The translations under genes were made by a program, and so were the position numbers. Below the pieces are notes generated by a model. The model was not told the DNA's origin, searched no databases, and worked only from the letters and a program-made list of their open reading frames with translations. A DNA stretch of 64,000 nt, taken from IMG/VR virus record IMGVR_UViG_3300030104_006170; one strand, 5' to 3'. Below are positions 3,555 to 42,449 of this stretch, piece after piece. Source of the stretch: a virus. Taxonomy: Duplodnaviria > Caudoviricetes. How positions within the stretch are numbered: position 1 is the first letter of the stretch; each line of letters begins with the position of its first letter.

Positions 3555-3569
3555 TAGAAAGGATATATT

Positions 3570-4706: not shown

Positions 4707-4707
4707 C

Positions 4708-14371: not shown

Positions 14372-14403
14372 TTTGACAAATTCGTTTTTTCCTGTTATAA
14401 TTA
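14372..14403 (+). promoter_or_regulatory. Strong early promoter heading the glycosylation island
   Basis: TTGACA(14373-78)-17 nt-TATAAT(14396-401) with an extended TG; also fits TTTG-N20-TAnnTT. The ATG is at 14408. Confidence 0.8.
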
Positions 14404-14407
14404 AAAC

Positions 14408-15646
14408 ATGGAAAAAAAGAAATATAAAATTTGTGTACTACCCTCTGATAGAACAGGGGTATCAAAGTTTAGGTCTGTCGACCCACATACATACTTACAA
14501 GACATGTACCCGGAAGAGTTTTGGGTAGATATAGTTTATGACCCACCTTACTATGATGATGATTTTTGGAAAGGTTATGATTTAATTCATTACCATAGAA
14601 GTATAGGCCCAGATTATGAAGCTTCTGCTGCATTAGCTAAAAGATTAACACAGTGGGGTATACCTCATGTGTGTGATATAGATGACTACTGGTTACCTAC
14701 TGTGGACCATCCGGCTCATATGATTGTAAAAAATAATAAAATAGATGAAAAAATAAGAACAAATCTTACTTTAGCGAGATATGTTACAACTACAACTACA
14801 GTATTTGCTGACGAAATCAAAAAACTAAATAAAAATGTTTTTATATATCCAAATGCTATAGACCACGAAGAAAAACAATATATCCCAAAACCAACAAAAA
14901 GTAATAAAGTTAGAGTTGGTTGGTTGGGTGGCTCCTCTCACATAAAAGATTTGGAAATTTTAAGTGGTGTTGCTGGTAGACTATATAATGATAGAAAAGA
15001 CAAGTTTCAAGTAGTTTTATGTGGTTATGATTTAAGAGGTACTATGACTGTTTTTGATGAAAAAACTGGACAACAGACTCAAAGACCTATCCAACCTATG
15101 GAGTCTGTGTGGTACAAATACGAACAAATTATGACTGATAATTATAGAATTTTAGGTGACGAATCTTACAGAGAAGAACTTTTATCTTTTAAGAAAAAAC
15201 AAATTACCGGTGATGAAAATTCTAACTATAGAAGAGTCTGGACTAAACCAATCACAACTTACGCTTCTAATTATAACAATTTTGATGTGAGTTTGGCACC
15301 ACTTAAAGAACATATTTTTAATAAGGTAAAATCACAACTAAAAGTTATAGAAGCTGGATTCCATAAAAAAGCTTTAGTATTACAGGATTATGGTCCATAC
15401 ACTATTGATTGTGTAAACGCTGTTAAGTTTGGTGGTGGTTTTGATGATAAGGGCAATGCTATGATGATACCAAAAAGTAAAAATCATAAATTGTGGTACC
15501 AGCACATTAAAAAACTAATAGACAACCCTTCTCTAGTGGAGGATTTGGGTGAAAGATTGTATGAGACTGTATACCCTAGGTATACATTAAAAACTGTAAC
15601 CACCCAAAGAGCAGAATGGTATAGAGAAATAATAAATAAATCTTAG
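14408..15646 (+). CDS. Glycosyltransferase, GT-B fold (GT4-like)
   Basis: DIDDYW, RVGWLGGSSH, FDVSLAPL...KSQLKVIEAG motifs. Confidence 0.85.
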   Translation: MEKKKYKICVLPSDRTGVSKFRSVDPHTYLQDMYPEEFWVDIVYDPPYYDDDFWKGYDLIHYHRSIGPDYEASAALAKRLTQWGIPHVCDIDDYWLPTVDHPAHMIVKNNKIDEKIRTNLTLARYVTTTTTVFADEIKKLNKNVFIYPNAIDHEEKQYIPKPTKSNKVRVGWLGGSSHIKDLEILSGVAGRLYNDRKDKFQVVLCGYDLRGTMTVFDEKTGQQTQRPIQPMESVWYKYEQIMTDNYRILGDESYREELLSFKKKQITGDENSNYRRVWTKPITTYASNYNNFDVSLAPLKEHIFNKVKSQLKVIEAGFHKKALVLQDYGPYTIDCVNAVKFGGGFDDKGNAMMIPKSKNHKLWYQHIKKLIDNPSLVEDLGERLYETVYPRYTLKTVTTQRAEWYREIINKS

Positions 15647-15647
15647 T

Positions 15648-15755
15648 ATGGGTATATTAACATTAATAGTAGGTTTTGGGGTTGGTCTTGTAAGTGGACT
15701 ATACCTTTCTAGTCAAATAGAAAAAAACATAAATAAAAGAATAAATAAAAAATAA
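15648..15755 (+). CDS. Small membrane peptide (35 aa), absent from the ORF track
   Basis: MGILTLIVGFGVGLVSGLYLSSQIEKNINKRINKK; fills the gap between two genes exactly; one hydrophobic segment and a basic tail. Confidence 0.6.
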   Translation: MGILTLIVGFGVGLVSGLYLSSQIEKNINKRINKK

Positions 15756-15760
15756 AAATT

Positions 15761-15991
15761 ATGTATTATCAAGCAATAGTAGCATTTGAAACCGGAGTTT
15801 TAGATAACGAGGGGAACGCAAAAGTAAAAAAATTTAAGTACGTAGTAGAGGCAGAGTCACTATACGAAGTTAATAAAAGGTTGGCAACTTATTTGTCTGA
15901 AGACACTAGAGATTCTGAAGTTGTGTCTATAGTTAAGGCTCCTTTTGAGGATATTTTACACCCGGAACTAACACCACAATATTACAAATAA
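15761..15991 (+). CDS. DUF4494-like small protein
   Basis: DNEGNAKVKKFKYVVEAESLYEVNKRL resembles the Bacteroidota DUF4494 N-terminal region. Confidence 0.55.
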   Translation: MYYQAIVAFETGVLDNEGNAKVKKFKYVVEAESLYEVNKRLATYLSEDTRDSEVVSIVKAPFEDILHPELTPQYYK

Positions 15992-15992
15992 A

Positions 15993-16601
15993 ATGAAAGA
16001 TAAATTAGGTAGTACATGGGACAGAATTAAAAGTGTTGTTAGTAACGAAGAAAATTCTATAAGTGATGAAAAAATGTTATCTCATTTAGGTGTAGATTCT
16101 AAAATGTTAAAGGATTTGGAAGACGAAACTGTTAAGTCTGCTATGGAGGGTGTGAAACCCGTAATCAAATATCAGAACAATTCTACAAACTTAGATTTAT
16201 CTTACAAATATATAGACGATAGTGGTATGGATTTAAGAGCTAATCTAAAAGAACCTATGACACTTAAATCTTTAGAAAGAGGATTAGTACCTACAGGAAT
16301 TCATTTTGAGTTACCCGAAAGTTTAGAAATCCAAGTTAGACCTAGAAGTGGTCTAGCTATTAAAAGTGGGATAACCGTACTAAACACACCAGGTACTGTA
16401 GATAGAGGTTATAACGGAGAAATAAAAATTATTTTAATGAACTTAAGTAAAGATGATTTTGTTATTAATCATGGTGATAGAATAGCACAGGCGGTAGTTT
16501 CTCCAGTAATTTCAGGTAGGTGGGCTAGACTAGTAAAAGTAAATAACTTAACAAAAACCCAAAGGGGTGATGGTGGATTTGGGTCAACAGGTATAGAATA
16601 A
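15993..16601 (+). CDS. dut: dUTP diphosphatase (trimeric) with N-terminal extension
   Basis: Five motifs: DLRA, RPRSGLA, GTVDRGYNGEI, RIAQAV, RGDGGFGSTG. Confidence 0.96.
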   Translation: MKDKLGSTWDRIKSVVSNEENSISDEKMLSHLGVDSKMLKDLEDETVKSAMEGVKPVIKYQNNSTNLDLSYKYIDDSGMDLRANLKEPMTLKSLERGLVPTGIHFELPESLEIQVRPRSGLAIKSGITVLNTPGTVDRGYNGEIKIILMNLSKDDFVINHGDRIAQAVVSPVISGRWARLVKVNNLTKTQRGDGGFGSTGIE

Positions 16602-16602
16602 A

Positions 16603-17700
16603 ATGAGTTTATCGATAGTATTTAGTACAAAAAAAATAAATGAAGATTTTGTTAAATTAATAAAGTCTACTTGTGGGGTACATAATGTTGAGGTTTTGCC
16701 TTACGAAAATCCTGGAAAATACTCACTTAATGAGGTCTATAACATGGGTTTAAAAAAAGCTACTAACGATAAAGTCGTATTTTGTCATGATGATATAAAA
16801 TTTGATACGAAAAATTGGGGTAGAAAAATGTTAAAGAACTTTTCTAAACATCCTGATTTTGGAATTATAGGCGTAGCAGGCACTAGATACCTTTCAACTA
16901 CCGGTAGATGGTGGGACGACTTTTCAAAAATGCATGGTGCTGTATACCACGAAAAAGATGGCAATAGGTGGTTAACAAGATATTCTAAAGATATAGGACT
17001 TAATTTAATGCCTGTAGTCTTAGTGGATGGGTTGTTTTTTGGGGTTTCTAAAAGTAAGTTAGTTAAACATTTTGACGAAAGTATAAAAGGATTTCACTTC
17101 TACGATGTAGAATTTTGTTTTTCTAATTTTTTAGAGAACGTTAAAATAGGTGTTTGTACTAATGTTAGAATAACTCATTTATCTATTGGTCAAACTAATG
17201 ATGAATGGGAAAAAAACAGAGAGGTTTTTGCTGAAAAATATAAAGATAAGTTACCTGTTAAAATGAATAGACCTTTTTACGATAATGAAAAATTTGATAT
17301 TTTAATTAGTACCGTATCTTTAAATGAAGAAATAATGGACCTATCAATAAACATTAAGAAACTAGGGCATAATTTATCTTTATTATGTGAACACTCTAGT
17401 TCACATAAGAAATTTTTAAATAGAAAAGGTATCGATATTCATCCTATTAATACACCCCCTGGTTTTAAAATGGGTGATGGGGAGTGGGCTTTGAGTGGGC
17501 CTAAAGGTCCTATCCAATCCGAAAAAGGTAAATTATATAAAATGAAAGAGATTAAATTTGATGTTATACATACCACGGACAATCAAATTATGGAGTACAT
17601 GAAAAATTTCTTTCCTAACACACCACAATTCAATAGTGATGATGATGAGGGGTTAAAGGGTGATTTAATAAAAAAATATAAAAAAGTTTTAGAATGGTAA
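16603..17700 (+). CDS. Glycosyltransferase, GT-A (GT2-like) with extra C-terminal region
   Basis: YNMG...VVFCHDDI...GIIGVAG...VDGLFF...FHFYDVEFC. Confidence 0.8.
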   Translation: MSLSIVFSTKKINEDFVKLIKSTCGVHNVEVLPYENPGKYSLNEVYNMGLKKATNDKVVFCHDDIKFDTKNWGRKMLKNFSKHPDFGIIGVAGTRYLSTTGRWWDDFSKMHGAVYHEKDGNRWLTRYSKDIGLNLMPVVLVDGLFFGVSKSKLVKHFDESIKGFHFYDVEFCFSNFLENVKIGVCTNVRITHLSIGQTNDEWEKNREVFAEKYKDKLPVKMNRPFYDNEKFDILISTVSLNEEIMDLSINIKKLGHNLSLLCEHSSSHKKFLNRKGIDIHPINTPPGFKMGDGEWALSGPKGPIQSEKGKLYKMKEIKFDVIHTTDNQIMEYMKNFFPNTPQFNSDDDEGLKGDLIKKYKKVLEW

Positions 17701-18479
17701 AAATAGTTTCTGGTTGGAGTAATCGTGGTGGTTCTACTTTCGCATTTATAAATCTTACAAATGCATTAAATAAAGCTGGTTATGATACTACATTTTATGG
17801 TCCTCATGAATGGCATTTAGATAAATGTAAATCTGGTAGGATGAATGAAATAAACATGAGTAAAAATGATAATATGATTTTTCATTTTATACCTTTAAAT
17901 GGTAGACCTGATGTTAGAAAAGTTTTGTTATCTTGTCACGAAAAGAATATTTTTGAAGTTGGTGATATCCCTCAGTATTGGGATGAGGTTGTTTTTTTAA
18001 ATAAAAAACAAAGAGAATACCATAATAGATACAAAGGTAGATATAACATAATACCTAATCTTAAAGAAGTTTTAGAAAATAAACCTAAGTCAGCAACAGC
18101 AAAAGGTGTAGCAGGAATTATTGGTTCTATAGACGAAAATAAACAAACTCATATTTCAATACAAAAAGCTGTAAAAGACGGATTTAAGAAAATTATGTTA
18201 TTTGGTAATGTGACCGACCCTAACTATTATAATAATTTTGTAAAACCACTTATCGATGAAAAGGTGATAGAAAGAGGTTTTATTAGTGATAAACAAAAAA
18301 TATATGATGAAGTAGAAGCTGTGTACCTATCATCAAATAGTGAAGTAGCTTCATTAGTAAAAGATGAGTGTGAAACTACTGGCACAAAATTTTATGGTAG
18401 TAAAGCTACTGAACATGATGTAATAAACCTATCTAATGATGAAATCATAAAAGAATGGGTTAAAGTTTTAGATTTATGA
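17694..18479 (+). CDS. Glycosyltransferase, GT-B fold
   Basis: GGSTFAFINLTNALNKAGYD N-terminus; GIIGSIDENK; VYLSS. Confidence 0.7.
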   Translation: MVKIVSGWSNRGGSTFAFINLTNALNKAGYDTTFYGPHEWHLDKCKSGRMNEINMSKNDNMIFHFIPLNGRPDVRKVLLSCHEKNIFEVGDIPQYWDEVVFLNKKQREYHNRYKGRYNIIPNLKEVLENKPKSATAKGVAGIIGSIDENKQTHISIQKAVKDGFKKIMLFGNVTDPNYYNNFVKPLIDEKVIERGFISDKQKIYDEVEAVYLSSNSEVASLVKDECETTGTKFYGSKATEHDVINLSNDEIIKEWVKVLDL

Positions 18480-19162
18480 TTATAGGTAATGGACTTATCG
18501 CTAAATCATTTTTAAAAAAACACGATAAAGATGATATTGTTATTTTTGCGTCAGGAGTATCAAACTCAAAAGAAGATAATCCAAAAAATTTTAAAAGAGA
18601 AAAAGACTTATTACTAAAAACCCTAGAAACCCACCAAGAAATAAAATTTATATATTTTAGTACTGTCCTTATTGGTTATAAACATAATCCATACTATTCA
18701 CATAAAAAAGAAATGGAGAATTTAATAAGATTACACGCTAAAGATTATATCATATTTAGAGTTCCACAATTAATAGGTAGTTGTGGAAATAATAATAATC
18801 TTATAAACTATCTAGTGGGTAAGATAAAGTCAGGTGAGTCTTTTAAAGTTTATGGTAACCTTAAAAGAGCTGTGGTAGATATAGAAGATTTAGTTAATTT
18901 TGTTATGTATTGTGAAAACAAAATTAGTTGTAAAACTGTTTATGTGGGGGGTATAGAACCTATTTCTGTTGTTGACTTATCAAAAATAATTCAATATTTT
19001 TTTAATGTTAATGATGGTAATTTAAAGATGGAAATTAAAGATACTAATGAAGATAATAGATGGACTTCATTGACAAGTCCCATTTTTAAAGATTATTTAT
19101 CTGATTTTAGTATTGAGTCTAGGGGTTACACACAAAAAATAATAGAAAAATATATAAAATAA
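18476..19162 (+). CDS. NAD-dependent epimerase/dehydratase (SDR)
   Basis: IIGNGLIA, FASGVSNS, YFST, YYSHK (YxxxK). Confidence 0.85.
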   Translation: MIIGNGLIAKSFLKKHDKDDIVIFASGVSNSKEDNPKNFKREKDLLLKTLETHQEIKFIYFSTVLIGYKHNPYYSHKKEMENLIRLHAKDYIIFRVPQLIGSCGNNNNLINYLVGKIKSGESFKVYGNLKRAVVDIEDLVNFVMYCENKISCKTVYVGGIEPISVVDLSKIIQYFFNVNDGNLKMEIKDTNEDNRWTSLTSPIFKDYLSDFSIESRGYTQKIIEKYIK

Positions 19163-19168
19163 TAAATT

Positions 19169-19891
19169 ATGATAGTACTAACTGGTTTTTATAACGCTGA
19201 ACAATATATAGAGCGTTGTCTTGCTACTATTCAGTCTCAAGACTATAAAGATTTTACATGTTATATAACACATGACCATTCTACAGATAATTCAGTAAAT
19301 TTAGTAAAAGAATTTATTAAAGATGACAAAAGATTTGTTCTAGTTGAGGAGAGTGATAAAAAATTATATCAAGCTGGAAACTTTGATACTGTTATTCGTA
19401 ATAACCCTAATATAAAAGACAGTGATGTCCTAGTAGAGGTAGATGGTGATGACTATCTTCCTGATAGAGGGGTTTTGAGTAGAATTAATAAACTTTACGA
19501 GGATGAAAATGTCTGGATTGCTAACGGTAGTTTTAGATATTCTAGTGGACAACCAGGATTTTCCCAAAAACAAACAGGTTTTGATAACTTGAGACAGGTT
19601 AGGTTTACAGCTTCTCATATTAGAACTTGGCGTGCATTTTTATGGAGAAATATAAAAGAAGAAGACTTACGTGATGAAAATGGTGATTACTGGCAGTGGA
19701 GTGGTGATTTGTGTTTTATGTACCCAATGTTAGAAATGTCAGGAGAAGAACATTATAGATTTATGAATGAGGTAAATTACGTATATAACGAAACCAACCC
19801 AATAAATGAACACAAAATAGATATGACGATGGTTAATAACCACGCATCAAGAATAAGAAGTAAAAAACCATATAAAAAATTAAAAATATGA
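19169..19891 (+). CDS. Glycosyltransferase family 2
   Basis: YNAEQYIERCLATI, DHSTDNS, VDGDD. Confidence 0.88.
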   Translation: MIVLTGFYNAEQYIERCLATIQSQDYKDFTCYITHDHSTDNSVNLVKEFIKDDKRFVLVEESDKKLYQAGNFDTVIRNNPNIKDSDVLVEVDGDDYLPDRGVLSRINKLYEDENVWIANGSFRYSSGQPGFSQKQTGFDNLRQVRFTASHIRTWRAFLWRNIKEEDLRDENGDYWQWSGDLCFMYPMLEMSGEEHYRFMNEVNYVYNETNPINEHKIDMTMVNNHASRIRSKKPYKKLKI

Positions 19892-21189
19892 AAAAAATAG
19901 ATAGTATATTACCAACACTGTTAAATTATTTACAGGAAAATAAACCAAAATACTTATACAACCAATCCTTTGTGCCTGGTGAAAGTCAAGTACTATATTC
20001 AGGACCTTACTGGGATGAGGAAGAAATTATGGCAGCCATTAAAACTTTTATAGAAGGTAAGTGGGTAGTTGCTGGAGAAAATGTAAATAAATTTGAACGT
20101 GCTTTTGGTAGAGTTTTTGGTGCAAAATTTGTACAAATGGTAAATTCTGGTAGTTCAGCTAATTTAGTTCTAATATCGGCTCTAAAAAAATATTTTGGTT
20201 GGGAGGATGGTGACGAAGTCATAGTTTCTCCCGTTGGATTCCCAACAACTATATCTGTTTTGGTGCAGAATGGTTTAAAACCAGTTTTTATAGATATAGA
20301 GTATGAAACACTTAACTTTGACATTACAAAAATAGAAGAAAAGATAACCCCTAAAACTAAAGCTATTTTTGTTTCTCCTGTCCTGGGTAATGTTCCTGAC
20401 ATGGACTTTTTAACTGAATTATGTAAAAAACACGACATAAGATTAATTGGTGATAGTTGTGATAGTATTGGGTCTAAATGGGATGGTAAACACTTAAGTG
20501 AATATTACGAAGCGTGGACATCTTCTTTTTATCCTGCACACCACATATCAACAGGAGAAGGTGGAGCTGTATGTACTAACATAGCACCATTAAAAAGATT
20601 ATTTACTAGTTTTGCTTGGTGGGGTAGAGATTGTTATTGTGTTGGTTCTGCTAATTTATTATCGTGTGGTACTTGTGGTAAAAGATTCGATAAATGGTTA
20701 GATTCTTATGACGGAATAATTGACCACAAATATGTTTTTACTAATATGGGTTATAACCTAAAACCTATGGATTTACAAGGTTCTATTGGACTTATTCAGT
20801 TAAAGAAATTTGAGGAGATTGACAACAATAGAAAAAGAAGTAAAAATACCATAGAATCTATATTTTTAAAATATGTTGATGGGATTAAGGGTGTATCTAT
20901 GTTACCTAAAGCTGACACTTGTTGGTTTGGTACTCCTTTTATTTGTGATAATAAACAATTAAAAGATAAACTAGTTGCTTTTCTAGAAGAGAATAAAATA
21001 CAAACTAGAAATTACTTTGCTGGAAACATACTAATGCACCCAGGTTATAAACATTTAGATGATTTAAATAAGTACCCAAACGCTAATACAGTTTTAGACA
21101 AAGTATTTTTTGTGGGGGCAGCACCACATTACACAGAAGAAGTTTTTGATTATATAGAAAGTATATTTGTTAATAAATGGGAAAATTAA
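19888..21189 (+). CDS. rfbH: NDP-4-keto-6-deoxyhexose 3-dehydratase (RfbH/DdhC E1-type, DegT family)
   Basis: NSGSSANL, GFPTT, DSCDSIG, SFYPAHH (His in place of the PLP Lys), WGRDCYC...CGKRF Cys cluster, YDHKY-like, TRNYFAGN. Confidence 0.88.
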   Translation: MKKIDSILPTLLNYLQENKPKYLYNQSFVPGESQVLYSGPYWDEEEIMAAIKTFIEGKWVVAGENVNKFERAFGRVFGAKFVQMVNSGSSANLVLISALKKYFGWEDGDEVIVSPVGFPTTISVLVQNGLKPVFIDIEYETLNFDITKIEEKITPKTKAIFVSPVLGNVPDMDFLTELCKKHDIRLIGDSCDSIGSKWDGKHLSEYYEAWTSSFYPAHHISTGEGGAVCTNIAPLKRLFTSFAWWGRDCYCVGSANLLSCGTCGKRFDKWLDSYDGIIDHKYVFTNMGYNLKPMDLQGSIGLIQLKKFEEIDNNRKRSKNTIESIFLKYVDGIKGVSMLPKADTCWFGTPFICDNKQLKDKLVAFLEENKIQTRNYFAGNILMHPGYKHLDDLNKYPNANTVLDKVFFVGAAPHYTEEVFDYIESIFVNKWEN

Positions 21190-22583
21190 AAGTTTTAGTA
21201 TTAGGTGATGGTTTACTAGGTTCGGAAATTGTTAAACAAACCGAATGGGACTATATTTCTAGAAAGAAAGATGGTTTTGATATTACTGATATGGAAACTT
21301 ATCATTTACTAACAAATGTAGAATTTGGTGCTATACAACATTGTAAATATGATATTATTCTTAATTGTATTGCAAATACAGACACTTACAGTACTGATAA
21401 AGATTTACACTGGAAAGTTAATTACGAAGGTTTATCTAATCTAATTAAATTTTGTAATGACTGGAAAGTAAAATTAGTTCACATATCCACAGACTATGTT
21501 TATTCTGGTTCTGATACAGAGGCTACAGAAAATACCGTACCTGTTCACTGTAACAACTGGTATGGTTACACTAAGTTGTTAGGTGATGGTTTGGTTCAAC
21601 TAAACTCAAATAATTACCTTTTATGTAGGTGTACTCACAAACCTAAACCATTTCCTTATGATGGTGCTTGGATTGACCAGGTTGGTAATTTTGACTATGT
21701 CTCTAACATCTCAAAACTTATCATAGATATGATAACCAATAATTTAAGTGGTTTATATAATGTGGGTACTGAAACTAAAACAATATATGAACTGGCTTCC
21801 GAAACAAGAAAAGTTAAAAAAATATATGCACCACAACAAGTACCTAAAAATCTTTCTATGAATTTAGATAAATTACATAAAGGTTTAAATAAACCATTTT
21901 TTTCCATAGCTATACCAACTTATGGATACAATGGAAGAGGGGTTGAGTTTTTAGATTTTAGTTTAGAAATTATAAGTAAACAAACTTTTAAAGACTTTGA
22001 AGTTGTGTTATCAGACCATAGTGAAGATGATACTATAAAAGAGGTTTACGATAAGTGGGCTGACAAGTTAAATATCAAATATTTTAGGAATTCTAAAGGT
22101 AGGGGTATCATATCTCCTAATATAAATAACGCTATGAAGTTATGTAACGGTAAATGGATTAAAGTTTTATTCCAAGACGATTTCCTATATAACGAAAACT
22201 CTTTAGAACTACAACACGAATTACTAAACGCTCAACCAAACATAAGTTGGGTTATGACTAAATTCTATCATAGTAATGACGGTAAGTCGTTTTATAGACT
22301 ATACAACCCAAGATGGAATAATATGATATGGACTGGAAATAATACCATGGGATGTCCTACTGGTATGACCATTAAAAATAAAAATCTAATATTTTTTGAC
22401 GAAGGTTTAAATTGGTTGATGGACGTAGATTATTACAAACGTATGTTTGATTTACATGGTGAACCAACTATATTAGATGAAATAACAGTAGTTAATAGGA
22501 CTTGGGGTAATAGACTTACTGATACCATACCTCAGTCTTTAAAAGATAAAGAATTTGAAATGTTAAAACTTAAATATGCTTAA
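21177..22583 (+). CDS. Fusion of an RmlD-like sugar reductase and a GT2 glycosyltransferase
   Basis: N-terminal VLVLGDGLLG, HISTDYVY, YGYTK; C-terminal FSIAIPTY, SDHSEDD, LFQDDF. Confidence 0.85.
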   Translation: MGKLKVLVLGDGLLGSEIVKQTEWDYISRKKDGFDITDMETYHLLTNVEFGAIQHCKYDIILNCIANTDTYSTDKDLHWKVNYEGLSNLIKFCNDWKVKLVHISTDYVYSGSDTEATENTVPVHCNNWYGYTKLLGDGLVQLNSNNYLLCRCTHKPKPFPYDGAWIDQVGNFDYVSNISKLIIDMITNNLSGLYNVGTETKTIYELASETRKVKKIYAPQQVPKNLSMNLDKLHKGLNKPFFSIAIPTYGYNGRGVEFLDFSLEIISKQTFKDFEVVLSDHSEDDTIKEVYDKWADKLNIKYFRNSKGRGIISPNINNAMKLCNGKWIKVLFQDDFLYNENSLELQHELLNAQPNISWVMTKFYHSNDGKSFYRLYNPRWNNMIWTGNNTMGCPTGMTIKNKNLIFFDEGLNWLMDVDYYKRMFDLHGEPTILDEITVVNRTWGNRLTDTIPQSLKDKEFEMLKLKYA

Positions 22584-28045: not shown

Positions 28046-28909
28046 ATGGGAAAAATATATGATTGTTTTAATTTCTTTAATGAGTTAGACATTTTAGAAC
28101 TAAGATTAAATATTCTCTACGAACATGTAGATTATTTTGTAATTGTAGAATCTACAGTTACTCACTCTGGCCAACCTAAACCTTTTTACCTAGAAGAAAA
28201 TAAGGAACGTTTTTCTAAGTTTTGGGACAAGATTATTAGTTTTAAAGTATCTGACACACCTGAAGATTTTGTTAACCTTACTAACACAGGATTTTTCGAC
28301 GCTGAATTAGATAAGGTACACTACTATATCCGTACACAAACTAATAGGTTTGATAGGCGTACACAAGTAGATTATGGTAGAGATTTTTTTCAAAAAGAAT
28401 CGGTTAGAAGAGCTCTAGTAAATTGTAATGAAGATGATATAATTATTATATCAGATGCTGACGAAATACCAAACCCAGAAATACTTAAAGATTTAAAGTC
28501 TCTTTCTTTAGATAATACAATATATTCCCTCTCCCAACCAATGTATTCTTATTACTTAAATATGTTAAGTGATTCGGACTGGCACGGTTCAAAAATGGGT
28601 CTATATAAAAACGTAAAAGAATTATCTTTTAACGAAATTAGGGGTGATTCAAACCTAACAACTAAATTGACTAATGGTGGATGGCATTTTAGTTTTATGG
28701 GTGGTGAAGAAATGGTGAAAACAAAAATAACATCTTATTCGGCTAGGGATTTAGTCAATGACCAAGTCCTATCAAGTATTAAGAGTAATATAGAAAATGA
28801 CCAAGATGTTTTTTTTAGAGGTAAATTAACAAAAGTAAAATTAGACGAAAGTTTTCCAGAATACGTATTAAATAATATACCATATTATAGTAAAATGATT
28901 AAAGAGTAA
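28046..28909 (+). CDS. GT17-like beta-1,4-N-acetylglucosaminyltransferase
   Basis: YDCFNFFNELDILELRL, VDYFVIVES, THSG, ISDADEIP, GGWHFSF. Confidence 0.85.
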   Translation: MGKIYDCFNFFNELDILELRLNILYEHVDYFVIVESTVTHSGQPKPFYLEENKERFSKFWDKIISFKVSDTPEDFVNLTNTGFFDAELDKVHYYIRTQTNRFDRRTQVDYGRDFFQKESVRRALVNCNEDDIIIISDADEIPNPEILKDLKSLSLDNTIYSLSQPMYSYYLNMLSDSDWHGSKMGLYKNVKELSFNEIRGDSNLTTKLTNGGWHFSFMGGEEMVKTKITSYSARDLVNDQVLSSIKSNIENDQDVFFRGKLTKVKLDESFPEYVLNNIPYYSKMIKE

Positions 28910-28913
28910 CTCT

Positions 28914-29690
28914 ATGATTATTAGTAAAATAATGGGTGGGCTAGGTAATCAAATGTTTCAGTATGCTTACGCAAGAAATTTATCTAATTTAAATAACACT
29001 AACTTTTATCTAGATACCTCGTTTTATAATAATCAAATTGGTGTGACCCCTAGAGTGTTTAGTTTAAATTCTTTCCCTAAAGCTTCTATAAATATAGAAA
29101 TTCCACAAGTAGAAAGTATCCAAGTCATTAATGACAACTTTAAATATGATTCCACCAAATTAATTAAGGGTACCTGTCTATTACAAGGTTATTGGCAAAG
29201 CGAAAAATACTTTAATGACTCTAAAAATTTAGTACTAGAGGACTTTTCTCCTGATGAAACCAATAGAAAAAAGTTACTTAAAAAATACCCTAAAGTAGGG
29301 GGTAATACAATATCTTTACATATTAGAAGAACAGATTATTTAACATCTAATGGTTATCATCCAGTACAAACTATTGATTATTACAATAAAGCTATAGATA
29401 TTTTAGGTACATATGAAAATATTTTTATATTTTCAGATGATATAGACTGGTGTAAAAATAATTTAAATTTCAAAAATATGGTTTTTGTTGAGGGTAATAA
29501 AGATATAGAAGATTTATGGTTAATGTCTTTATGTAGAAATAACATTATAGTTAATTCTTCTTTTAGTTGGTGGGGTGCTTATTTAAATAAGAATGTCGAT
29601 AAAATAGTTATTGCTCCATCTAAGTGGTTTGGTGATGGTGTTACCTTAAATACTGAGGACATACTACCAAAAAAATGGATTAAACTTTAA
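28914..29690 (+). CDS. Alpha-1,2-fucosyltransferase (GT11)
   Basis: GGLGNQMFQYA, GYWQSEKYF, HIRRTDY, NSSFSWWGAYL. Confidence 0.93.
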   Translation: MIISKIMGGLGNQMFQYAYARNLSNLNNTNFYLDTSFYNNQIGVTPRVFSLNSFPKASINIEIPQVESIQVINDNFKYDSTKLIKGTCLLQGYWQSEKYFNDSKNLVLEDFSPDETNRKKLLKKYPKVGGNTISLHIRRTDYLTSNGYHPVQTIDYYNKAIDILGTYENIFIFSDDIDWCKNNLNFKNMVFVEGNKDIEDLWLMSLCRNNIIVNSSFSWWGAYLNKNVDKIVIAPSKWFGDGVTLNTEDILPKKWIKL

Positions 29691-29694
29691 TAAT

Positions 29695-30678
29695 ATGGGT
29701 ACGAATAAAACAGCTTTAATAACAGGGATAAATGGTCAAGATGGTTCATATCTTGCTGAACTACTTTTAAAAAAAGGTTACAATGTTTGGGGTATATTAA
29801 AAAGAAATTCTGTTTCTGAGAACCAGACAGCTAGAATACCGGAAAACATATACCAAAAACTTAATTTAGTTTATGGTGATTTATTAGACATCCCATCTTT
29901 AATTAATGTATTACAGAAATCTAAACCAGATGAGGTATATAATTTGGCGGCACAATCACATGTGAGAATAAGTTTTGACCAACCAATTTACACAACCCAG
30001 GTCACAGGATTAGGTACTCTAAATTTATTAGAAGCTATAAGATTAACCAACCCCAACATTAAAATATATCAGGCTAGTTCTTCTGAAATGTTTGGCAATA
30101 ATATAGATAGTGATGGATACCAAAGAGAAACCACACCAATGGAACCGGTATCACCATATGGGTGTGCAAAAGTTTTTTCTTACAATATTTGTAAAAACTA
30201 TAGAAACTCATATAATATGTTTATTTCAAATGGGATTCTATTTAACCATGAATCACCAAGGAGAGGTACAAACTTTGTAACTAATAAAGTCGTTAAAGAA
30301 GCTGTAAAAATAAAATTAGGGTTATCTAATGAACTTAAATTAGGTAATATGAACGCCAGTAGAGATTGGGGACACGCTAAAGATTATGTAAAAGCGATGT
30401 GGTTAATGTTACAAGAAGACTCCCCGGCTGACTACGTATGTTCTACAGGGATTTCACATACGGTTAAAGATTTGGTAGAATATGTATTTGGTTCATTAGA
30501 ATTGGATTGGGAAAAATATGTGAGACAGGATAAAAAGTATTTACGACCTGAAGAATTAGAACATTTAAAAGGCGACTGTTCAAAAATAAAATCAGAGTTG
30601 GGTTGGTCACCTAACTATAATTTCGAATCTATGTTAGATGAGATGATTGAATATTGGTTAGAGTATTATGAAAAATGA
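29695..30678 (+). CDS. gmd: GDP-mannose 4,6-dehydratase
   Basis: ALITGINGQDGSYLAE, NLAAQSHV, QASSSE, SPYG, GILFNHESPRRG, RDWGHAKDYV. Confidence 0.97.
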   Translation: MGTNKTALITGINGQDGSYLAELLLKKGYNVWGILKRNSVSENQTARIPENIYQKLNLVYGDLLDIPSLINVLQKSKPDEVYNLAAQSHVRISFDQPIYTTQVTGLGTLNLLEAIRLTNPNIKIYQASSSEMFGNNIDSDGYQRETTPMEPVSPYGCAKVFSYNICKNYRNSYNMFISNGILFNHESPRRGTNFVTNKVVKEAVKIKLGLSNELKLGNMNASRDWGHAKDYVKAMWLMLQEDSPADYVCSTGISHTVKDLVEYVFGSLELDWEKYVRQDKKYLRPEELEHLKGDCSKIKSELGWSPNYNFESMLDEMIEYWLEYYEK

Positions 30679-31618
30679 TATGGAAATAATGGATGTTGGT
30701 GAGGTACATGTGAAAAGACCTAATTTATTAGTTACTGGTGGTCATGGTTTGGTCGGTAGCCAAATTAGTTCTGGTATAAAAATAGGTAGTATTGTAGATT
30801 TAAGAAATTCACAGATTTGTGATGCTTTTTTTAATGACACAAAACCCATAAACGTTGTTCATTGTGCAGCTAAAGTAGGTGGTTTAGGTGGTAATATGAA
30901 TCTAAAGGGTGAGTTTTTTTACGACAATATCATGATAAATACAAATGTGATAGAATCCTGTAGAAAATATGGGGTAAAAAAATTAGTTTGTTTTTTATCA
31001 ACTTGTGTTTTTCCAGATAATGTAGAATACCCATTAACAGAAAAAAAGATACATCTAGGTGAACCCCATAACTCTAATTATCCGTATGCATATGCTAAAA
31101 GAATGGCAGATATACAAATTAGAGCATATAGAGAGCAATACGATTTAAATTATGTATCTGTAATACCAACTAATATATATGGACCAAACGATAACTTTAA
31201 CTTAGAAAATGGACATGTAATACCTTCATTAATCCACAAATGTTATTTAGCCAAAAAAAATAATACCCCTTTTAAAATATGGGGAAGTGGTAAACCACTT
31301 AGAGAATTTATATACTCAGAAGATGTTGCTAAGCTAACTGAATGGGTTTTAGAGAATTATAATGAAGAAGAACCAATTATATTATCTACGTCTGAAGAAA
31401 TATCTATTAGAGATGTTGTTAAATTAATAATTAAACATATGGACTTTAAAGGTGATGTCATATGGGAAGATGAGAAACCTGATGGACAATTTAGGAAACC
31501 TAGTGATAATAGTAAATTAATGTCTTATTTACCAGATTTTAAATTCACTAGTTTAGATGAAGGATTAAAAAAAACAGTTGATTGGTTTGTATCAAACTAT
31601 AAATTATGTAGAAAATAA
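30668..31618 (+). CDS. fcl: GDP-L-fucose synthase
   Basis: AAKVGG, LSTCVFP, YAYAKR, PTNIYGPNDNF, HVIPSL, WGSGKPLREF, KPDG. Confidence 0.95.
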   Translation: MKNDMEIMDVGEVHVKRPNLLVTGGHGLVGSQISSGIKIGSIVDLRNSQICDAFFNDTKPINVVHCAAKVGGLGGNMNLKGEFFYDNIMINTNVIESCRKYGVKKLVCFLSTCVFPDNVEYPLTEKKIHLGEPHNSNYPYAYAKRMADIQIRAYREQYDLNYVSVIPTNIYGPNDNFNLENGHVIPSLIHKCYLAKKNNTPFKIWGSGKPLREFIYSEDVAKLTEWVLENYNEEEPIILSTSEEISIRDVVKLIIKHMDFKGDVIWEDEKPDGQFRKPSDNSKLMSYLPDFKFTSLDEGLKKTVDWFVSNYKLCRK

Positions 31619-31628
31619 ATAATTAAAA

Positions 31629-32372
31629 ATGGGAAGAAGAAGTAAAAAATTAAGTAGAGAGGAACAAATGGAGGTAGAAGAATGGATTTACCAAAATAAT
31701 ACCGAAGAAAAAAGACTTTCGGACACTATGACGATTAGTGTTAAGTGTAAAACAGAAAACCAAAAATCTCTGGTTAACGCTATAAAAGAAAAAGAGGTCA
31801 TAATTTGTTCTGGACCAGCTGGTACAGGTAAAACTTATTTAGCGTGTGCTGAAGCACTAAAACTAATCAAACGTTACGCTAAATATAAAAAAATTGTAAT
31901 TGTAAAATCTGTAACCACATTAAAGAATGAGGAAATTGGGTTTCTTAAAGGTGGTTTAAGAGAAAAAATGGAACCTTTTATGTTTTCATTTGTACATAAT
32001 TTTGAGAAGTTGGTGGGACAAGCTATAACTTCTAGACTTAGAGAATTAAAAACTATAGAAGAATTACCTATTGCTTATATGAGAGGTATTAATTTGGATA
32101 GGTCTATTATTATTATAGATGAGGCTCAAAATATATCACAAGAAAATATAAGAACTATTATGACTAGGTTAGGTAAAGATTCTAAAATGATATTCTTGGG
32201 TGATGAAAGACAACAAGATTCTAAAGGACATAATGGACTGACCTTTTTAATGGACCACTTCCAAGACATAGAGGAGATTGGGTGTGTTCAGTTTAATAAA
32301 TCAGACGTGGTAAGAAACCCATTAATAGCTAAAATAGAAAGGGTTTTTGATTCTTTACATATTGGTAGATAA
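31629..32372 (+). CDS. phoH: PhoH-like ATPase
   Basis: GPAGTGKT, AYMRG, DEAQN, TRLG, GDERQ, DVVRNPL. Confidence 0.95.
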   Translation: MGRRSKKLSREEQMEVEEWIYQNNTEEKRLSDTMTISVKCKTENQKSLVNAIKEKEVIICSGPAGTGKTYLACAEALKLIKRYAKYKKIVIVKSVTTLKNEEIGFLKGGLREKMEPFMFSFVHNFEKLVGQAITSRLRELKTIEELPIAYMRGINLDRSIIIIDEAQNISQENIRTIMTRLGKDSKMIFLGDERQQDSKGHNGLTFLMDHFQDIEEIGCVQFNKSDVVRNPLIAKIERVFDSLHIGR

Positions 32373-32387
32373 TAATTAGGTTTAAAT

Positions 32388-32960
32388 ATGATAATTAGTG
32401 TAAGTATAAACGGTGTATTAAGAGATATTTTGGGTAAGTTCGAACAAATTTATGAAAAATATAGTGGTAAAGAGGTAAAATCTCCGGTAATAACACCTGA
32501 CTTGATGGAGTATGTGGATTTTAAAGATGATGACGAATTATTAGATTTTTTATATAATGATGCAACTATGGAAATATTTGGTCAGGCAAAAGAAACAGAA
32601 AATAATGTTATTTCTCACTTAGTAGAACTTTACAAAGAAATGCCTGTAGATTATAAATTAAGAATAGTTAGTGATGATTTAGGTAAATCTAAATCTGCCA
32701 CATTATGGTTTTTATCTAAATATGGTTTAGTTTGTGATGAAATAGTTTTTTATACAACCGATACCATATCCGAATTATGGGATAAGAGTGATATTTTTAT
32801 AACTGCAGATACAGACATAATAAATAATAAACCAAAAGATAAAAAATTAATAATAATAGATAAGTGTTATAATGAAGGAATGAAAAGTGACTTGAGGATT
32901 AACACACTAAGAAAAATAAAATCGTTAGAAAATGCCTTTGAAAAAAACACTATCATATAG
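32388..32960 (+). CDS. HAD-fold 5'(3')-nucleotidase-like protein with degenerate motif I
   Basis: N-terminal SVSINGVLRD aligns with the HAD motif (x)DxDGV; LWFLSKYG; C-terminal pattern of this family. Confidence 0.6.
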   Translation: MIISVSINGVLRDILGKFEQIYEKYSGKEVKSPVITPDLMEYVDFKDDDELLDFLYNDATMEIFGQAKETENNVISHLVELYKEMPVDYKLRIVSDDLGKSKSATLWFLSKYGLVCDEIVFYTTDTISELWDKSDIFITADTDIINNKPKDKKLIIIDKCYNEGMKSDLRINTLRKIKSLENAFEKNTII

Positions 32961-33234
32961 TAAACTAAGACTTAAGGTTGGTTCCGAACAACTTTATTTT
33001 GATGTTGATGAATTAATGACTAACATTGAAATGGCGGGAAGTAAGGATGGTAAACCTACTGTAGAAATAAATTTACCTAAATTTGAGTTTTTTAAACTTA
33101 TGCTAGATACCACCTGTGGTATTGTGGAAGAGGCTGATGAGAATTTAGGTGTGGTGTCAATGAATAAATTATCTTTACCTTATAAGTTGGCTCTTAATAC
33201 ATTAATAAAATATAATATAATTAAAAAACTATAA
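32932..33234 (+). CDS. Hypothetical protein
   Basis: 100 aa ORF within the operon; start uncertain. Confidence 0.6.
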   Translation: MPLKKTLSYSKLRLKVGSEQLYFDVDELMTNIEMAGSKDGKPTVEINLPKFEFFKLMLDTTCGIVEEADENLGVVSMNKLSLPYKLALNTLIKYNIIKKL

Positions 33235-33238
33235 TTAA

Positions 33239-34306
33239 ATGGAAATGGAAAAACAATTATCCCAGTTAAAGTCTGGGTTGTCAAAAATGGAAAACAAAGA
33301 AGCTAAAATTTACTTTCTAACTCAGGATACGGAGGGTAGAGCGATAGCTTCTGTTAACTTAAACTATCAGTATGTAAAGTATTTAAAAGAAGCGGGATTT
33401 AACGCATACATTCTTTACGAGAAAAAAGAATACAAGGGTGTTGGTGATTGGTTACCTAAAGAGTATTCAGAATTACCACACGCTAACATAGAAAGTGGTG
33501 AACTTAAAGTAGGACCACAAGATTTTGTAATTATACCTGAATTATATGGTCACGTATTAGAACAAATAAAAGATATGCCTTGTACTAAAATGATATTCTG
33601 TCAAGCTTATGACTATATTTTAGAAACTTTACAACCTGGATTTAGTTGGGTTAATTACGGTGTAACAAAATGTATTACAACTACTGAATCACAAAAAGAG
33701 TATATTTCTGGTCTTTTTCCTTCAGTAGAAGTTAGTGTTATAAAACCTTCTATACCTGAATACTTTAAACCTTCTAAAAAACCTAAAACTCCTTTAGTAG
33801 CTGTTCATACTCGTGACCCTAGAGAAACTATGAAAATTATAAAAGAATTTTATTTAAGAAATCCACAATTTAAATGGTTAACTTTTAGAGATATGAGAAA
33901 TATGAGTAGAGAAGAATTTGCTAAAGTATTAGGTGAAGCTTGTGTTGGTGTTTGGGTGGATAGAATTAGTGGTTTTGGTACATTCCCTTTAGAGGCTATG
34001 AATTGTAATACACCTGTTATTGGTAACTTACCTATTTTAAAACCTGATTGGATGTCCCAAGAAAATGGTTTATGGGTTTACGACGAATCTAAAATTGTTG
34101 AGGTTTTGGGTAACTACGTTAAGAACTGGTTGGAGGATAATTTACCATCTAAACTATATGAAGAAATGGCAAAAACAGTCGTCCCTTATAAAGAAGAAGA
34201 TGAACGTAAATCAGTAATTTCTTATTTTACTAACTTATTTAATGAAAAAACGGAAGAATTTAAAAATTCCATAAACAAATTATCCCCTGTGGGTGTAAAC
34301 GCTTAA
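33239..34306 (+). CDS. Glycosyltransferase, GT-B (GT4-like)
   Basis: FVIIPE, SGFGTFPLEAMNCNTPVIG. Confidence 0.82.
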   Translation: MEMEKQLSQLKSGLSKMENKEAKIYFLTQDTEGRAIASVNLNYQYVKYLKEAGFNAYILYEKKEYKGVGDWLPKEYSELPHANIESGELKVGPQDFVIIPELYGHVLEQIKDMPCTKMIFCQAYDYILETLQPGFSWVNYGVTKCITTTESQKEYISGLFPSVEVSVIKPSIPEYFKPSKKPKTPLVAVHTRDPRETMKIIKEFYLRNPQFKWLTFRDMRNMSREEFAKVLGEACVGVWVDRISGFGTFPLEAMNCNTPVIGNLPILKPDWMSQENGLWVYDESKIVEVLGNYVKNWLEDNLPSKLYEEMAKTVVPYKEEDERKSVISYFTNLFNEKTEEFKNSINKLSPVGVNA

Positions 34307-34311
34307 AAGAT

Positions 34312-35109
34312 ATGAATAATAAAGATGTAACAGTTATATTACCTATACATAGTGTAGATGGTAAATTTGATGAATGGTTTTCTAAAGCCATAAAAAGTTT
34401 AGAACAGACACAAGTAAAACCGGGTTATTTATATTTGGTTTGTGCTGATGATAAAGAAATTAAAAATTATATGGAATCCTGGACACAACCAGAAGGGTTA
34501 ACAACTAAAATACTATATAATGGAGGAGAAACTGATTATTGTAGTCAAATAAATTTTGGTGTTGAGTCTTGTGAAACAGAATTTTTCTCTATTTTAGAAT
34601 ATGATGACGAATATTCAAATATTTGGTTTAAACAATTTAATGAATACGTAGAGGCTTATGAGGATGTTGATTTATTTTTCCCGTTAGTTGTAGATACTGA
34701 TGAAAATGGACAGTTTATAGGTTTTACTAATGAGGCTTTATGGGCAATGGGATTCTCTGAAGATTTAGGATATTTGGATAATAACACACTATTAAAGTAC
34801 CAAAATTTCCAAGTGAGTGGTATGATAATGAAAAAAGATAAGTTTGAAGAGGTTGGTGGTTTAAAACCTTCTATGAAACTAACCTTTAATTATGAATTTT
34901 TATTACGTGCTACATATAATGACACTGTTATCATGACCATACCTAAGGTAGGTTACAAACACACTAATCAAAGAGCAGATTCTTTGTTCTGGGATTACAA
35001 ATTTAATAAGGATAAACAACTAACACCAGATGAGGCTAAATTTTGGATTGAGTTGGCTAAAAAAGAGTATTTTTTTACTAAAGATAGGAAAGTAGAATAT
35101 TCAGTATAG
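34312..35109 (+). CDS. Glycosyltransferase family 2
   Basis: VTVILPI, INFGV, FSILEYDDEY, NYEFLLR. Confidence 0.82.
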   Translation: MNNKDVTVILPIHSVDGKFDEWFSKAIKSLEQTQVKPGYLYLVCADDKEIKNYMESWTQPEGLTTKILYNGGETDYCSQINFGVESCETEFFSILEYDDEYSNIWFKQFNEYVEAYEDVDLFFPLVVDTDENGQFIGFTNEALWAMGFSEDLGYLDNNTLLKYQNFQVSGMIMKKDKFEEVGGLKPSMKLTFNYEFLLRATYNDTVIMTIPKVGYKHTNQRADSLFWDYKFNKDKQLTPDEAKFWIELAKKEYFFTKDRKVEYSV

Positions 35110-42389: not shown

Positions 42390-42420
42390 ATAACAGTTAA
42401 TTAAAAAATAAAGATATAAA

Positions 42421-42449
42421 AAAACCACTCAAAAGAGTGGTTTTTGTTT
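42421..42449. terminator. Bidirectional intrinsic terminator
   Basis: AAAACCACTC-AAAA-GAGTGGTTTT perfect stem between convergent genes. Confidence 0.88.

Follow-up and report, generated by a model that had tools for sequence, protein, structure and literature searches.

Multi-gene glycan clusters are among the commonest "auxiliary" gene sets of large marine phages, and the question that they raise is what they glycosylate. We considered it for a stretch of 64,000 nucleotides (below, the window) from a tailed phage (Caudoviricetes; IMG/VR record IMGVR_UViG_3300030104_006170), in which an initial annotation had described positions 14,372 to 35,109 as one candidate self-contained glycosylation island of ~21 kb, for which cytoplasmic acceptors (virion proteins or DNA) were favoured. 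As an observation this was confirmed, all of the named genes being found in place on the + strand; its interpretation was partly supported. Comparison of gene order across relatives revealed that the region is not a single island, but a conserved backbone with three core glycosyltransferases and a 15-kb hypervariable insertion (16,603-31,618) between the genes for dUTPase and a PhoH-like ATPase. Such clusters were already known as a kind; what is new here is the anatomy (core glycosyltransferases, a single hotspot, cassette exchange and no lipid-carrier machinery), which, together with fibre-like repeat proteins encoded nearby in the family, sharpens the question of the acceptor.

Conserved backbone and hypervariable insertion

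Between 14,408 and 35,109 the window carries about 25 open reading frames (ORFs), all on the + strand and separated by intergenic gaps of -56 to +16 nt; the sole larger gap is a 346-nt stretch containing two small ORFs. On the basis of Pfam, NCBIfam, PHROG, PDB and Atlas searches and two structure predictions, 12 genes within 14.4-35.1 kb were classed as glycosyltransferase-like (nine backed by family or fold) and nine as sugar-nucleotide or tailoring enzymes, where about ten glycosyltransferase-like genes plus sugar and tailoring enzymes had originally been listed. Among these calls, those of the deacetylase and of two short SDRs (short-chain dehydrogenases/reductases) are weak, and the DUF3431 match is partial.

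A search of IMG/VR with the genes flanking the island yielded 60 related loci. In ~40 distant relatives (contigs of up to 324 kb) the insertion is absent and the dUTPase gene directly abuts PhoH. The order in these loci, with genes named by the window position of their homologues, is 13726, GT-B glycosyltransferase 14408, a small ORF, dUTPase, PhoH, 32388, GT-B glycosyltransferase 33239, GT2 glycosyltransferase 34312 and 35112; the flank shows ~33% identity to the window and the three glycosyltransferases 40-50%. Because this order is conserved in ~40 distant relatives, 14408, 33239 and 34312 are family-core genes. Their alignments retain catalytic-type motifs across the broad family.

In a closer marine subclade, a block of 10-20 kb is inserted exactly at the dUTPase-PhoH junction and always starts with a Glyco_tranf_2_5 gene. 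Its content takes at least seven configurations among close relatives whose flanks are 62-99% identical. The variants include (i) locus L068, with other genes in place of Gmd-Fcl; (ii) L071, with radical-SAM/B12, SIS, split transketolase, nucleotidyltransferase and shikimate-dehydrogenase-like genes; (iii) L072, with methyltransferases, a kinase, FdtA, DegT and a cytidylyltransferase-HMGL fusion; (iv) L186, with a large SDR-methyltransferase fusion, UDP-glucose dehydrogenase and a third GT11; and (v) L066, a compact form of 10 kb. One sub-module is recurrent (GT2, E1, RmlD/GT2, DUF5672, DUF3431, GT11 and GT17), and in the window it is split by an extra insert of four genes (23,965-27,147; deacetylase, formyltransferase, PseB-like dehydratase and SDR). 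The varying content together with the recurring sub-module indicates that the island is modular and that its parts are swapped like the cassettes of O-antigen loci. The 642-kb phage LR756502.1, whose record is unannotated and for whose module we found no published description, carries a syntenic series of GT2, E1-type DegT (433 aa), RmlD-GT2, DUF5672 (74% identity), DUF3431, GT11 and GT17 (38%). It differs in having twice the genome size, other flanks, an extra GT6 and a large SDR-methyltransferase fusion.

The first core gene, 14408 (14,408-15,646, +), encodes a retaining GT4-type GT-B glycosyltransferase (phrog_7162 glycosyltransferase, 6e-38) present in all relatives at 44-92% identity. Its AF2 model (pLDDT 89) has the GT4-type GT-B fold, with GlgM, MshA, BshA, PglA and SdgB as top matches and T4 AGT at rank 49, a fold that does not distinguish one acceptor from another. 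The second, 33239 (33,239-34,306, +; 39-92% identity, all relatives), is a GT-B enzyme of the AmGGT/Agt subfamily, whose only significant PDB relative is AmGGT (8xsg; 6e-16 with the single sequence, 1.4e-16 with the family profile). The third, 34312 (34,312-35,109, +; 43-92% identity, all relatives), is a GT2 enzyme of the GT-A type, with nearest Atlas clusters that are 74-93% PF00535; in the family alignment its ExDD motif is retained, with E96, D98 and D99 invariant. PDB sequence searches with 14408, 34312 and the insertion gene 17694 gave nothing significant. A distant homologue of 14408 (26% identity) is one of four consecutive glycosyltransferase genes that lie beside primase/helicase, Dam methylase and DNA polymerase genes in Escherichia coli Phapecoctaviruses (ESCO5, NC_047776.2, 107401-110545; locus L187), which offer culturable models for that family.

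The insertion hotspot is bordered on the left by dUTPase (15,993-16,601, +; PF00692, 7.5e-26) and on the right by the PhoH-like ATPase (31,629-32,372, +; PF02562, 1e-58; 34-97% identity, all relatives). Two further backbone genes, likewise retained in relatives (32,388-33,234, +), encode a weakly NT5C/HAD-like protein of 190 aa (PF06941, 0.0097) and a protein of 100 aa. Upstream of dUTPase lies a small backbone gene of 76 aa (15,761-15,991, +; 39-96% identity in relatives), whose homologue in L072 and L186 has a weak DUF4494 match. The block's only sizeable gap also holds a 35-aa ORF (15,648-15,755, +) with one strongly hydrophobic segment; at this position, relatives carry a zf-CDGSH gene of 59-60 aa (L072, 1755-1934; L186, 3588-3770).

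Predicted sugar donors and missing machinery

The insertion encodes enzymes that would supply three kinds of sugar donor. The first, GDP-L-fucose, would be formed by GDP-mannose 4,6-dehydratase (Gmd; 29,695-30,678, +; PF16363, 4.6e-120) and GDP-L-fucose synthase (Fcl/GMER; 30,668-31,618, +; NCBIfam Fcl, 2e-70), the product of the last insertion gene. They are preceded by a GT11-like gene of the alpha-1,2-fucosyltransferase family (27,134-28,045, +; PF01531, 1.4e-05; 73-91% identity in L049, L051 and L058), a GT17-family glycosyltransferase gene (28,046-28,909, +; PF04724, 2.5e-26) and a second gene of the GT11 fucosyltransferase family (28,914-29,690, +), which matches nearly the whole PF01531 profile (6.6e-27). 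As a side observation, Fcl is far nearer to eukaryote-type synthases (PDB human and Naegleria enzymes, 1e-93 to 2e-88) than to E. coli Fcl (4e-49).

The second donor would be a 3-deoxy or 3,6-dideoxy-hexose, made by an E1-type (RfbH-like), pyridoxamine-phosphate-dependent NDP-4-keto-6-deoxyhexose 3-dehydratase (19,888-21,189, +; NCBIfam RfbH, 5.5e-109) and an RmlD-like 4-reductase. The dehydratase has His at the pyridoxal-phosphate lysine position and retains the E1-aligned Cys. It was considered as ColD (colitose), and the E1 type was preferred on score (PDB 3bcx E1, 4.7e-80, against 5e-45 for ColD); its substrate could possibly be the product of Gmd. The reductase half (RmlD_sub_bind, residues 5-152, 1.8e-20) is fused to a GT2 (residues 243-394, 1.3e-12) in a single gene (21,177-22,583, +). 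The same fusion occurs in LR756502 and L186, and L071 has two separate genes.

A 6-deoxy-HexNAc, possibly N-formylated, would be the third donor, and its genes are those of the four-gene insert, which is specific to the window type. A PseB/FnlA-like UDP-GlcNAc 4,6-dehydratase (25,511-26,437, +; PF02719, 2.7e-39) scores below the curated NCBIfam cut-offs of both PseB (4.5e-48) and FnlA (2e-31). It is followed by a short SDR-like protein of 236 aa (26,437-27,147, +; weak N-terminal PF01370, 6.4e-04), a possible 4-reductase judging from its position. The insert starts with a NodB-type polysaccharide deacetylase-like gene (23,965-24,876, +; weak PF01522, 1e-06; TFDDG motif), which does not occur at this place in L063, L066, L185 and L186. 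Next comes a compact formyltransferase-like protein of 212 aa (24,873-25,511, +; PF00551, 2.8e-15), which retains HPSPLPKYRGG and DTGD and reads C-L-H at the position of N-x-H (with the catalytic Asn), presumably the usual motif of formyltransferases; its activity may be altered.

Further transferases complete the insertion. The first gene (16,603-17,700, +) encodes a Glyco_tranf_2_5 glycosyltransferase (PF13712, 1.5e-26) with homologues at the same position in relatives G002, G003, G005 and G006 (44-67% identity). The adjoining 261-aa protein (17,694-18,479, +) is possibly GT4-like, a lead given by its nearest Atlas clusters, which are viral and in some cases carry Glycos_transf_1; it has no Pfam, NCBIfam, PHROG or PDB match. 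A short SDR-like gene of 228 aa (18,476-19,162, +; partial and weak PF01370, 5.4e-06), which moves with its neighbours in L063 and L068, precedes a GT2 glycosyltransferase gene (19,169-19,891, +; PF00535, 4e-15) conserved in L063, L066, L185 and L186. The DUF5672 protein (22,576-23,241, +; PF18922, 2.3e-10) is glycosyltransferase-like with a GT-A fold: the best matches of its model (pLDDT 88.7) are GT6 alpha-1,3-GalT, BoGT6a, the WrtF fucosyltransferase and PBCV-1 A064R (TMq 0.5-0.59). Its homologues fall into 2677 protein clusters, the best 120 of which show at least 71% identity, and lie on contigs of up to 642 kb. The DUF3431-like candidate glycosyltransferase next to it (23,186-23,965, +) matches PF11913 over residues 28-98 only (3.8e-07), and its gene adjoins DUF5672 or GT11 in every relative examined.

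No nucleotidyltransferase, ManB/ManC or E3 reductase is encoded among the genes of the block. Contrary to what had been proposed, the pathway is therefore not fully self-contained: it requires host GDP-mannose and UDP-GlcNAc, and the E3 partner of the E1-type enzyme is not present.

The claim that flippase, Wzy and initiating transferase are missing not only held, but could be extended. No island ORF of the window has two or more hydrophobic segments, and hydropathy analysis of 171 island proteins from nine phages revealed none with at least two, i.e. no polytopic membrane protein. Profile searches, run with positive control genomes, covered four relatives (G001, G005, G006 and G012) with completeness of 26%, 66%, 88% and 97%. 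In these, the families Bac_transf (PF02397), Glycos_transf_4 (PF00953, WecA/MraY type), Polysacc_synt (PF01943, Wzx) and Wzy_C (PF04932) are absent. Hydrophobic ORFs elsewhere in G005 and G006 were considered as export genes and rejected, being antisense frames of repeat genes or devoid of glycan-export families. The absence of membrane components is suggestive of a cytoplasmic acceptor, as initially favoured, and the island proteins are indeed soluble; the use of a borrowed host lipid carrier and export route may, however, also be compatible with this absence.

The acceptor

Our preferred reading, to which we give somewhat less than even confidence, is that a lipid-free cytoplasmic pathway in two layers glycosylates a phage-made acceptor, probably fibre or capsid proteins of the virion. 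In the first layer, 14408, 33239 and 34312 would start and build a conserved inner glycan on this acceptor. In the second, the cassette at 16,603-31,618 would draw on host GDP-mannose and UDP-GlcNAc to make the three kinds of donor, and about nine further transferases (GT2_5, GT2, the DUF5672 GT-A enzyme, two GT11, GT17 and others) would attach these sugars. Near-identical phages exchange the cassette module by module; the outer glycan would thus differ from strain to strain and would correspond, in a phage, to an O-antigen serotype. With more reserve, we suggest for large marine phages a self-contained, lipid-carrier-free protein glycosylation system in which the core primes virion proteins and a swappable 10-20-kb cassette writes the strain-specific outer glycan, or "phage serotype"; such a system would have its analogues in the capsid glycans of giant viruses and in bacterial O-antigens. 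What we infer here is the identity of the sugars and the order of the steps, both from family membership, and, above all, the acceptor.

If the acceptor is indeed a virion component, tailed phages would join the giant viruses as bearers of self-made, variable glycan coats, with a bearing on adsorption, on particle aggregation and sinking, and on serotype-like diversity; a phage serotype could, in seawater, affect which hosts are recognized, how readily particles stick or whether predators are avoided.

Several lines of evidence are consistent with a phage-made acceptor. The conservation of the core glycosyltransferases (40-50% identity, with their motifs) would fit such an acceptor better than host glycans, which vary with the host. 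Moreover, the modelled GT-A fold of the DUF5672 protein resembles that of the capsid-glycosylating PBCV-1 A064R, which lends the reading some support. A further lead towards a protein acceptor is given by AmGGT (Actinobacillus minor), the only solved relative of core enzyme 33239: its close homologues, named Agt, elongate the glucose on peptides that NGT has N-glycosylated in the cytoplasm (PMC12159676). Chloroviruses (PBCV-1 Vp54) and Mimivirus/Megavirus (fibrils) glycosylate their virions with their own Gmd/GMER, 6-deoxy-HexNAc-type pathways and soluble glycosyltransferases, encoded in strain-variable clusters. The window phage likewise has its own Gmd and Fcl and soluble, lipid-carrier-independent glycosyltransferases, and its DUF5672 model resembles the A064R GT-A domain at the level of fold. 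It differs from the giant viruses in being a tailed phage with a bacterial host and in lacking sequence homology to their glycosyltransferases.

In tailed phages, the only demonstrated case according to the summary of Freeman 2023 in PMC12619734 is that of mycobacteriophages, the structural proteins of whose virions are O-glycosylated in the cytoplasm by phage glycosyltransferases. Phage-encoded soluble glycosyltransferases are common to both. As that summary describes them, mycobacteriophages have two to four glycosyltransferases encoded beside capsid and tail-tube genes, acceptor tails at the C-terminus and no sugar-nucleotide pathways, whereas the window has 12 glycosyltransferase-like genes, three donor pathways, no S/T tails and an island that ends 7.7 kb from the head gene, with further genes in between.

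Which protein might be the acceptor? In the window, a candidate is the 886-aa product of 8,974-11,634 (-), with 36 Cys and 13 N-x-S/T sites, which is syntenic with a fibre-like locus of distant relatives and shares 22-30% identity over residues ~400-700 with ORFs at the same place in L006-L047. The fibre-like locus of the distant relatives (~1500-7400, -, in L006-L047; 1-17363 and 71873-82606, -, in G006) encodes collagen-like (GSS/GTS) and TPS(I/V)TAT-repeat proteins of up to 1443 aa. In 26 of 42 distant loci, several of them near-identical, S/T/P-repeat ORFs of at least 250 aa are located no more than 10 kb upstream of the core block. G006 encodes ten giant proteins with collagen-like GSS/GTS (PF01391, 7e-130) or TPS(I/V)TAT repeats. 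Pfam searches with two of the S/T/P-repeat proteins revealed no families. The proximity of repeat proteins to the core block is suggestive of a protein acceptor, at the level of the family only.

Several points weigh against a virion acceptor. The syntenic fibre-like protein of the window (8,974-11,634) is without repeats, and no window protein has convincing S/T-rich tails or dense sequons. An initiating protein glycosyltransferase of a known type is also missing: GT41/NGT (PF13844) is absent from the four relatives searched, and there is no match in the window. The absence of GT41/NGT from the four relatives therefore indicates that this is not an NGT/Agt system, despite the Agt-like 33239.

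The remaining points against it lead to the main alternative, remodelling of the host envelope, a serious competitor that we hold to be nearly as likely as the preferred reading. The phage enzymes, being soluble, would act on the inner side of the membrane and lengthen lipid-linked intermediates of the host (Und-PP-sugar, i.e. undecaprenyl-diphosphate-linked sugar, lipid A-core or a precursor of Bacteroidota general O-glycosylation), and host flippases, ligases or oligosaccharyltransferases would export and display the new glycan with its fucose or deoxy-sugars. The surface would then be altered during a long infection, which could block superinfection or re-adsorption of progeny to debris, or help to evade grazers; if so, such islands would constitute an important and varied route to superinfection exclusion in the sea. 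The content of the insertion (Gmd, Fcl, GT11, the E1-type enzyme, the PseB-like dehydratase and the formyltransferase) is that of bacterial O-antigen and capsule loci, whose cassette-like hypervariability it shares. The promoter, of the host sigma-70 type, would suit a takeover of the host early in infection, but also the stocking of enzymes at that stage. The closest cellular homologues of Gmd (70-74% identity) come from metagenome-assembled genomes of Saprospiraceae, Aureispira and Cryomorphaceae, all Bacteroidota, a phylum with fucosylated surface glycans; further homologues are found on one Pelagibacter-labelled contig and in several Acidobacteriota.

Modification of the host surface is also what the authors of studies on similar clusters favour, for S-SCSM2R and P-SSM2 (PMC12801897) and for pelagimyophages (PMC7029224). 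The initial annotation had started from the premise that phages more often have a single glycosyltransferase or a few of them, which these clusters show to be untrue of large marine myoviruses. For S-SCSM2R, 13 glycosyltransferases and 22 genes of "cell wall synthesis and modification" are on record, and S-SCSM1 and P-SSM2 contain homologues (PMC12801897); in pelagimyophages, a hypervariable island abounds in glycosyltransferases of the lipopolysaccharide (LPS) type (PMC7029224); and cultured Synechococcus phages provide further examples. Homologues of the GT17 gene 28046 (29% identity over 99% of the length) were found in Synechococcus phages RN05-S, RB11-B, S-B05, S-B43 and S-H68, in each case beside a GT11. 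In RN05-S, the one inspected, this pair is located within a ~15-kb sugar cluster with Gmd, RmlC, SDRs, DegT and methyltransferases. The cultured cyanophages with a homologous GT17-GT11-Gmd module make the acceptor question testable at the bench.

The likeness to the cyanophage clusters (P-SSM2, S-SCSM1, S-SCSM2R and the S-B05 group) is considerable: these are large lytic marine myoviruses with 10-13 co-oriented glycosyltransferases (GT2, GT11, GT1/4 and others) plus Gmd, SDRs, DegT and methyltransferases. The window phage belongs to another lineage (29% identity for GT17; a head protein that groups with those of Flavobacterium and Microcystis phages and a 484-kb phage), and its cluster differs in being an insertion at a defined dUTPase-PhoH hotspot flanked by family-core glycosyltransferases, and in having the E1-type 3-dehydratase, the deacetylase-formyltransferase module, DUF5672 and DUF3431. 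The pelagimyophage island is similar in being non-syntenic between conserved T4-like modules, in combining LPS-type glycosyltransferases with deoxy-sugar genes and in varying among close relatives. Its position, however, is between VrlC and gp14 in the midst of tail-fibre genes, and its commonest family is GT8 (PMC7029224), whereas the insertion described here occupies the dUTPase-PhoH site, contains no fibre genes and carries GT2, GT11, GT17 and DUF5672.

Envelope remodelling is faced with the lack of any membrane component. O-antigen and capsule loci of the Wzx/Wzy or ABC-transporter type contain the same enzyme families, but here neither an initiating phosphoglycosyltransferase nor a flippase or ABC transporter, polymerase or ligase was found, and no Gtr-type membrane protein, whether in nine islands or in relatives with completeness of up to 97%. 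The phage would have to borrow the entire export route, which would in turn have to accept foreign glycans. Seroconverting phages (GtrA/GtrB/GtrC or Oac) differ in the same respect, as no island protein is polytopic, and no integrase or lysogeny gene was seen among the window ORFs searched. Finally, three glycosyltransferases that form the core of a broad family, presumably on varied hosts, would be unexpected for a host-specific surface chemistry.

It is also conceivable, although highly improbable, that some or all of the glycosyltransferases attach sugars to modified bases of the phage DNA as a protection against restriction, and that the variable cassette serves to vary these sugars. The core genes do lie among genes of nucleotide metabolism (dUTPase, PhoH and the weakly NT5C-like gene), T4 alpha-glucosyltransferase is among the fold matches of 14408, hypervariability would be compatible with an arms race, and the DNA glycosyltransferases of phages form a diverse set (Pyle 2024, as cited in PMC12619734). 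However, a dCMP/dUMP hydroxymethylase is not evident in the four relatives: those 88% and 97% complete carry only a canonical ThyA-like enzyme (best PDB match bacterial ThyA, 6e-75; Asn of the dUMP-type PFNIASY motif retained), and G001 and G005 carry none. Neither was a GT63- or GT72-type DNA glucosyltransferase met with, as the model of 14408 is GT4-like and 33239 matches only AmGGT. Twelve transferases, including GT11 and GT17, with pathways for formyl- and deoxy-sugars would far exceed any known DNA glycan. For S-B43, in which the GT17-GT11 pair also occurs, a carboxymethyl-cytosine system is reported instead (PMC12783734); this is indirect evidence, no search for sugars being reported there.

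Core and cassette might, alternatively, serve different acceptors (e.g. a virion protein or DNA on the one hand and host glycans on the other), or the product might be a soluble or secreted oligosaccharide or a glycolipid. The two differ in evolutionary history, an insertion junction need not be functionally tied to its flanks, and the substrates of AmGGT, to which 33239 is closest among solved structures, are free oligosaccharides and not glycopeptides (PMC12159676). We consider such an arrangement unlikely: the cassette is co-oriented with the core glycosyltransferases and tightly packed between them without a terminator, and in the subclade it is always inserted at this one site, both of which suggest functional coupling.

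Transcription signals, phage context and host

A promoter was initially described as heading a co-oriented, tightly coupled run. There is indeed a predicted sigma-70-type promoter-like site at 14,373-14,401 (+; TTGACA-17-TATAAT, the -10 element being preceded by TG), which lies 6 nt ahead of the first gene, and the packing is tight; non-glycan genes, however, intervene (dUTPase at 15,993, PhoH at 31,629, the weakly NT5C-like gene at 32,388 and small ORFs), and the co-oriented + block is wider than 14,372-35,109, spanning 11,686-42,303. The site is the sole 12/12 match in the 34 kb between 11 and 45 kb. The form CCCCTTTGAC[AT]-17-TAT[AT]AT is preserved in L003, L004 and L072 while the spacers differ, and this persistence of the hexamers, seen in four relatives, argues that the site is functional. 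Sigma-70 consensus sites are not a recurring class in the relatives, and the extended -35 motif occurs only once. The T4-type late promoter TATAAATA was found at 26 sites against 17.5 expected, many of them on the wrong strand.

A different conserved motif (TTTG-T-rich ... TTATTATTTAGACATA) lies 40-90 nt upstream of the 14408 homologue in L006-L047. In L006 and L041 it includes TAnnTTTG, reminiscent of the -7 elements of Bacteroidota, whose promoters do not resemble those of the E. coli type. The E. coli-type promoter in the marine subclade and the other motif in the distant relatives may mean that hosts or promoter classes differ.

The first strong terminator past the block is a bidirectional terminator-like hairpin at 42,420-42,445, with a perfect 11-bp stem and T tracts on both strands; nothing comparable was found between 14.4 and 42.4 kb. 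It divides the convergent + block from the minus-strand block of head genes.

The origin of the island from host or prophage DNA was considered and rejected. PHROG profiles revealed phage replication and structural genes in the flanks, namely helicase (1,301-3,034), DNA polymerase (5,755-8,490, -), T4-type major head protein (42,823-44,655, -), portal (48,315-50,159, -) and large terminase (50,204-51,949, -), and base composition is even across the window (GC content 28-34%). The window contains no tRNA genes. The closest record, an 82.7-kb IMG/VR contig (G001), is 99% identical over the island; its estimated completeness of 26% implies a genome of roughly 0.3 Mb. Comparison with 50,697 phage records gave no match, either for the island (megablast) or for the 33239 protein (tblastn). 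Island DNA was detected in marine, sponge and seawater metagenomes from 14 studies. On the G001 contig, ~15 kb past the right end of the window, one ORF of at least 5090 aa (67399-82671, -; L188/L189) reaches the contig end; Pfam found no family in its first 4890 residues.

The head protein has its most similar counterparts (~41-42% identity) in Flavobacterium phage immuto, Microcystis phage Mel-JY01 and an uncultured phage of 484 kb. In the right part of the window, a full-length DnaK/Hsp70 (57,892-59,766, -; Pfam, 8e-264) is encoded next to a divergent ClpB-like double-AAA disaggregase (59,945-61,981, +). The DnaK and the affinities of the head protein would be compatible with the "moraphages", a group of aquatic jumbo phages that are predicted to infect Bacteroidota, have genomes of 200-307 kb and carry DnaK/DnaJ as well as four core glycosyltransferase orthogroups (PMC12619734). 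The window phage resembles them as an aquatic jumbo phage with DnaK and a ClpB-like protein, three syntenic core glycosyltransferases and a Bacteroidota-like Gmd. It differs in that moraphages are placed outside the T4 group, and the dUTPase-PhoH insertion and its variability are not described for them (PMC12619734). According to a 2026 preprint, glycosyltransferases belong to the protein classes that are widespread in huge phages (10.64898/2026.10.24.761521). In LR756502, a ClpB-like gene (L185, 2746-4869) adjoins the glycan module.

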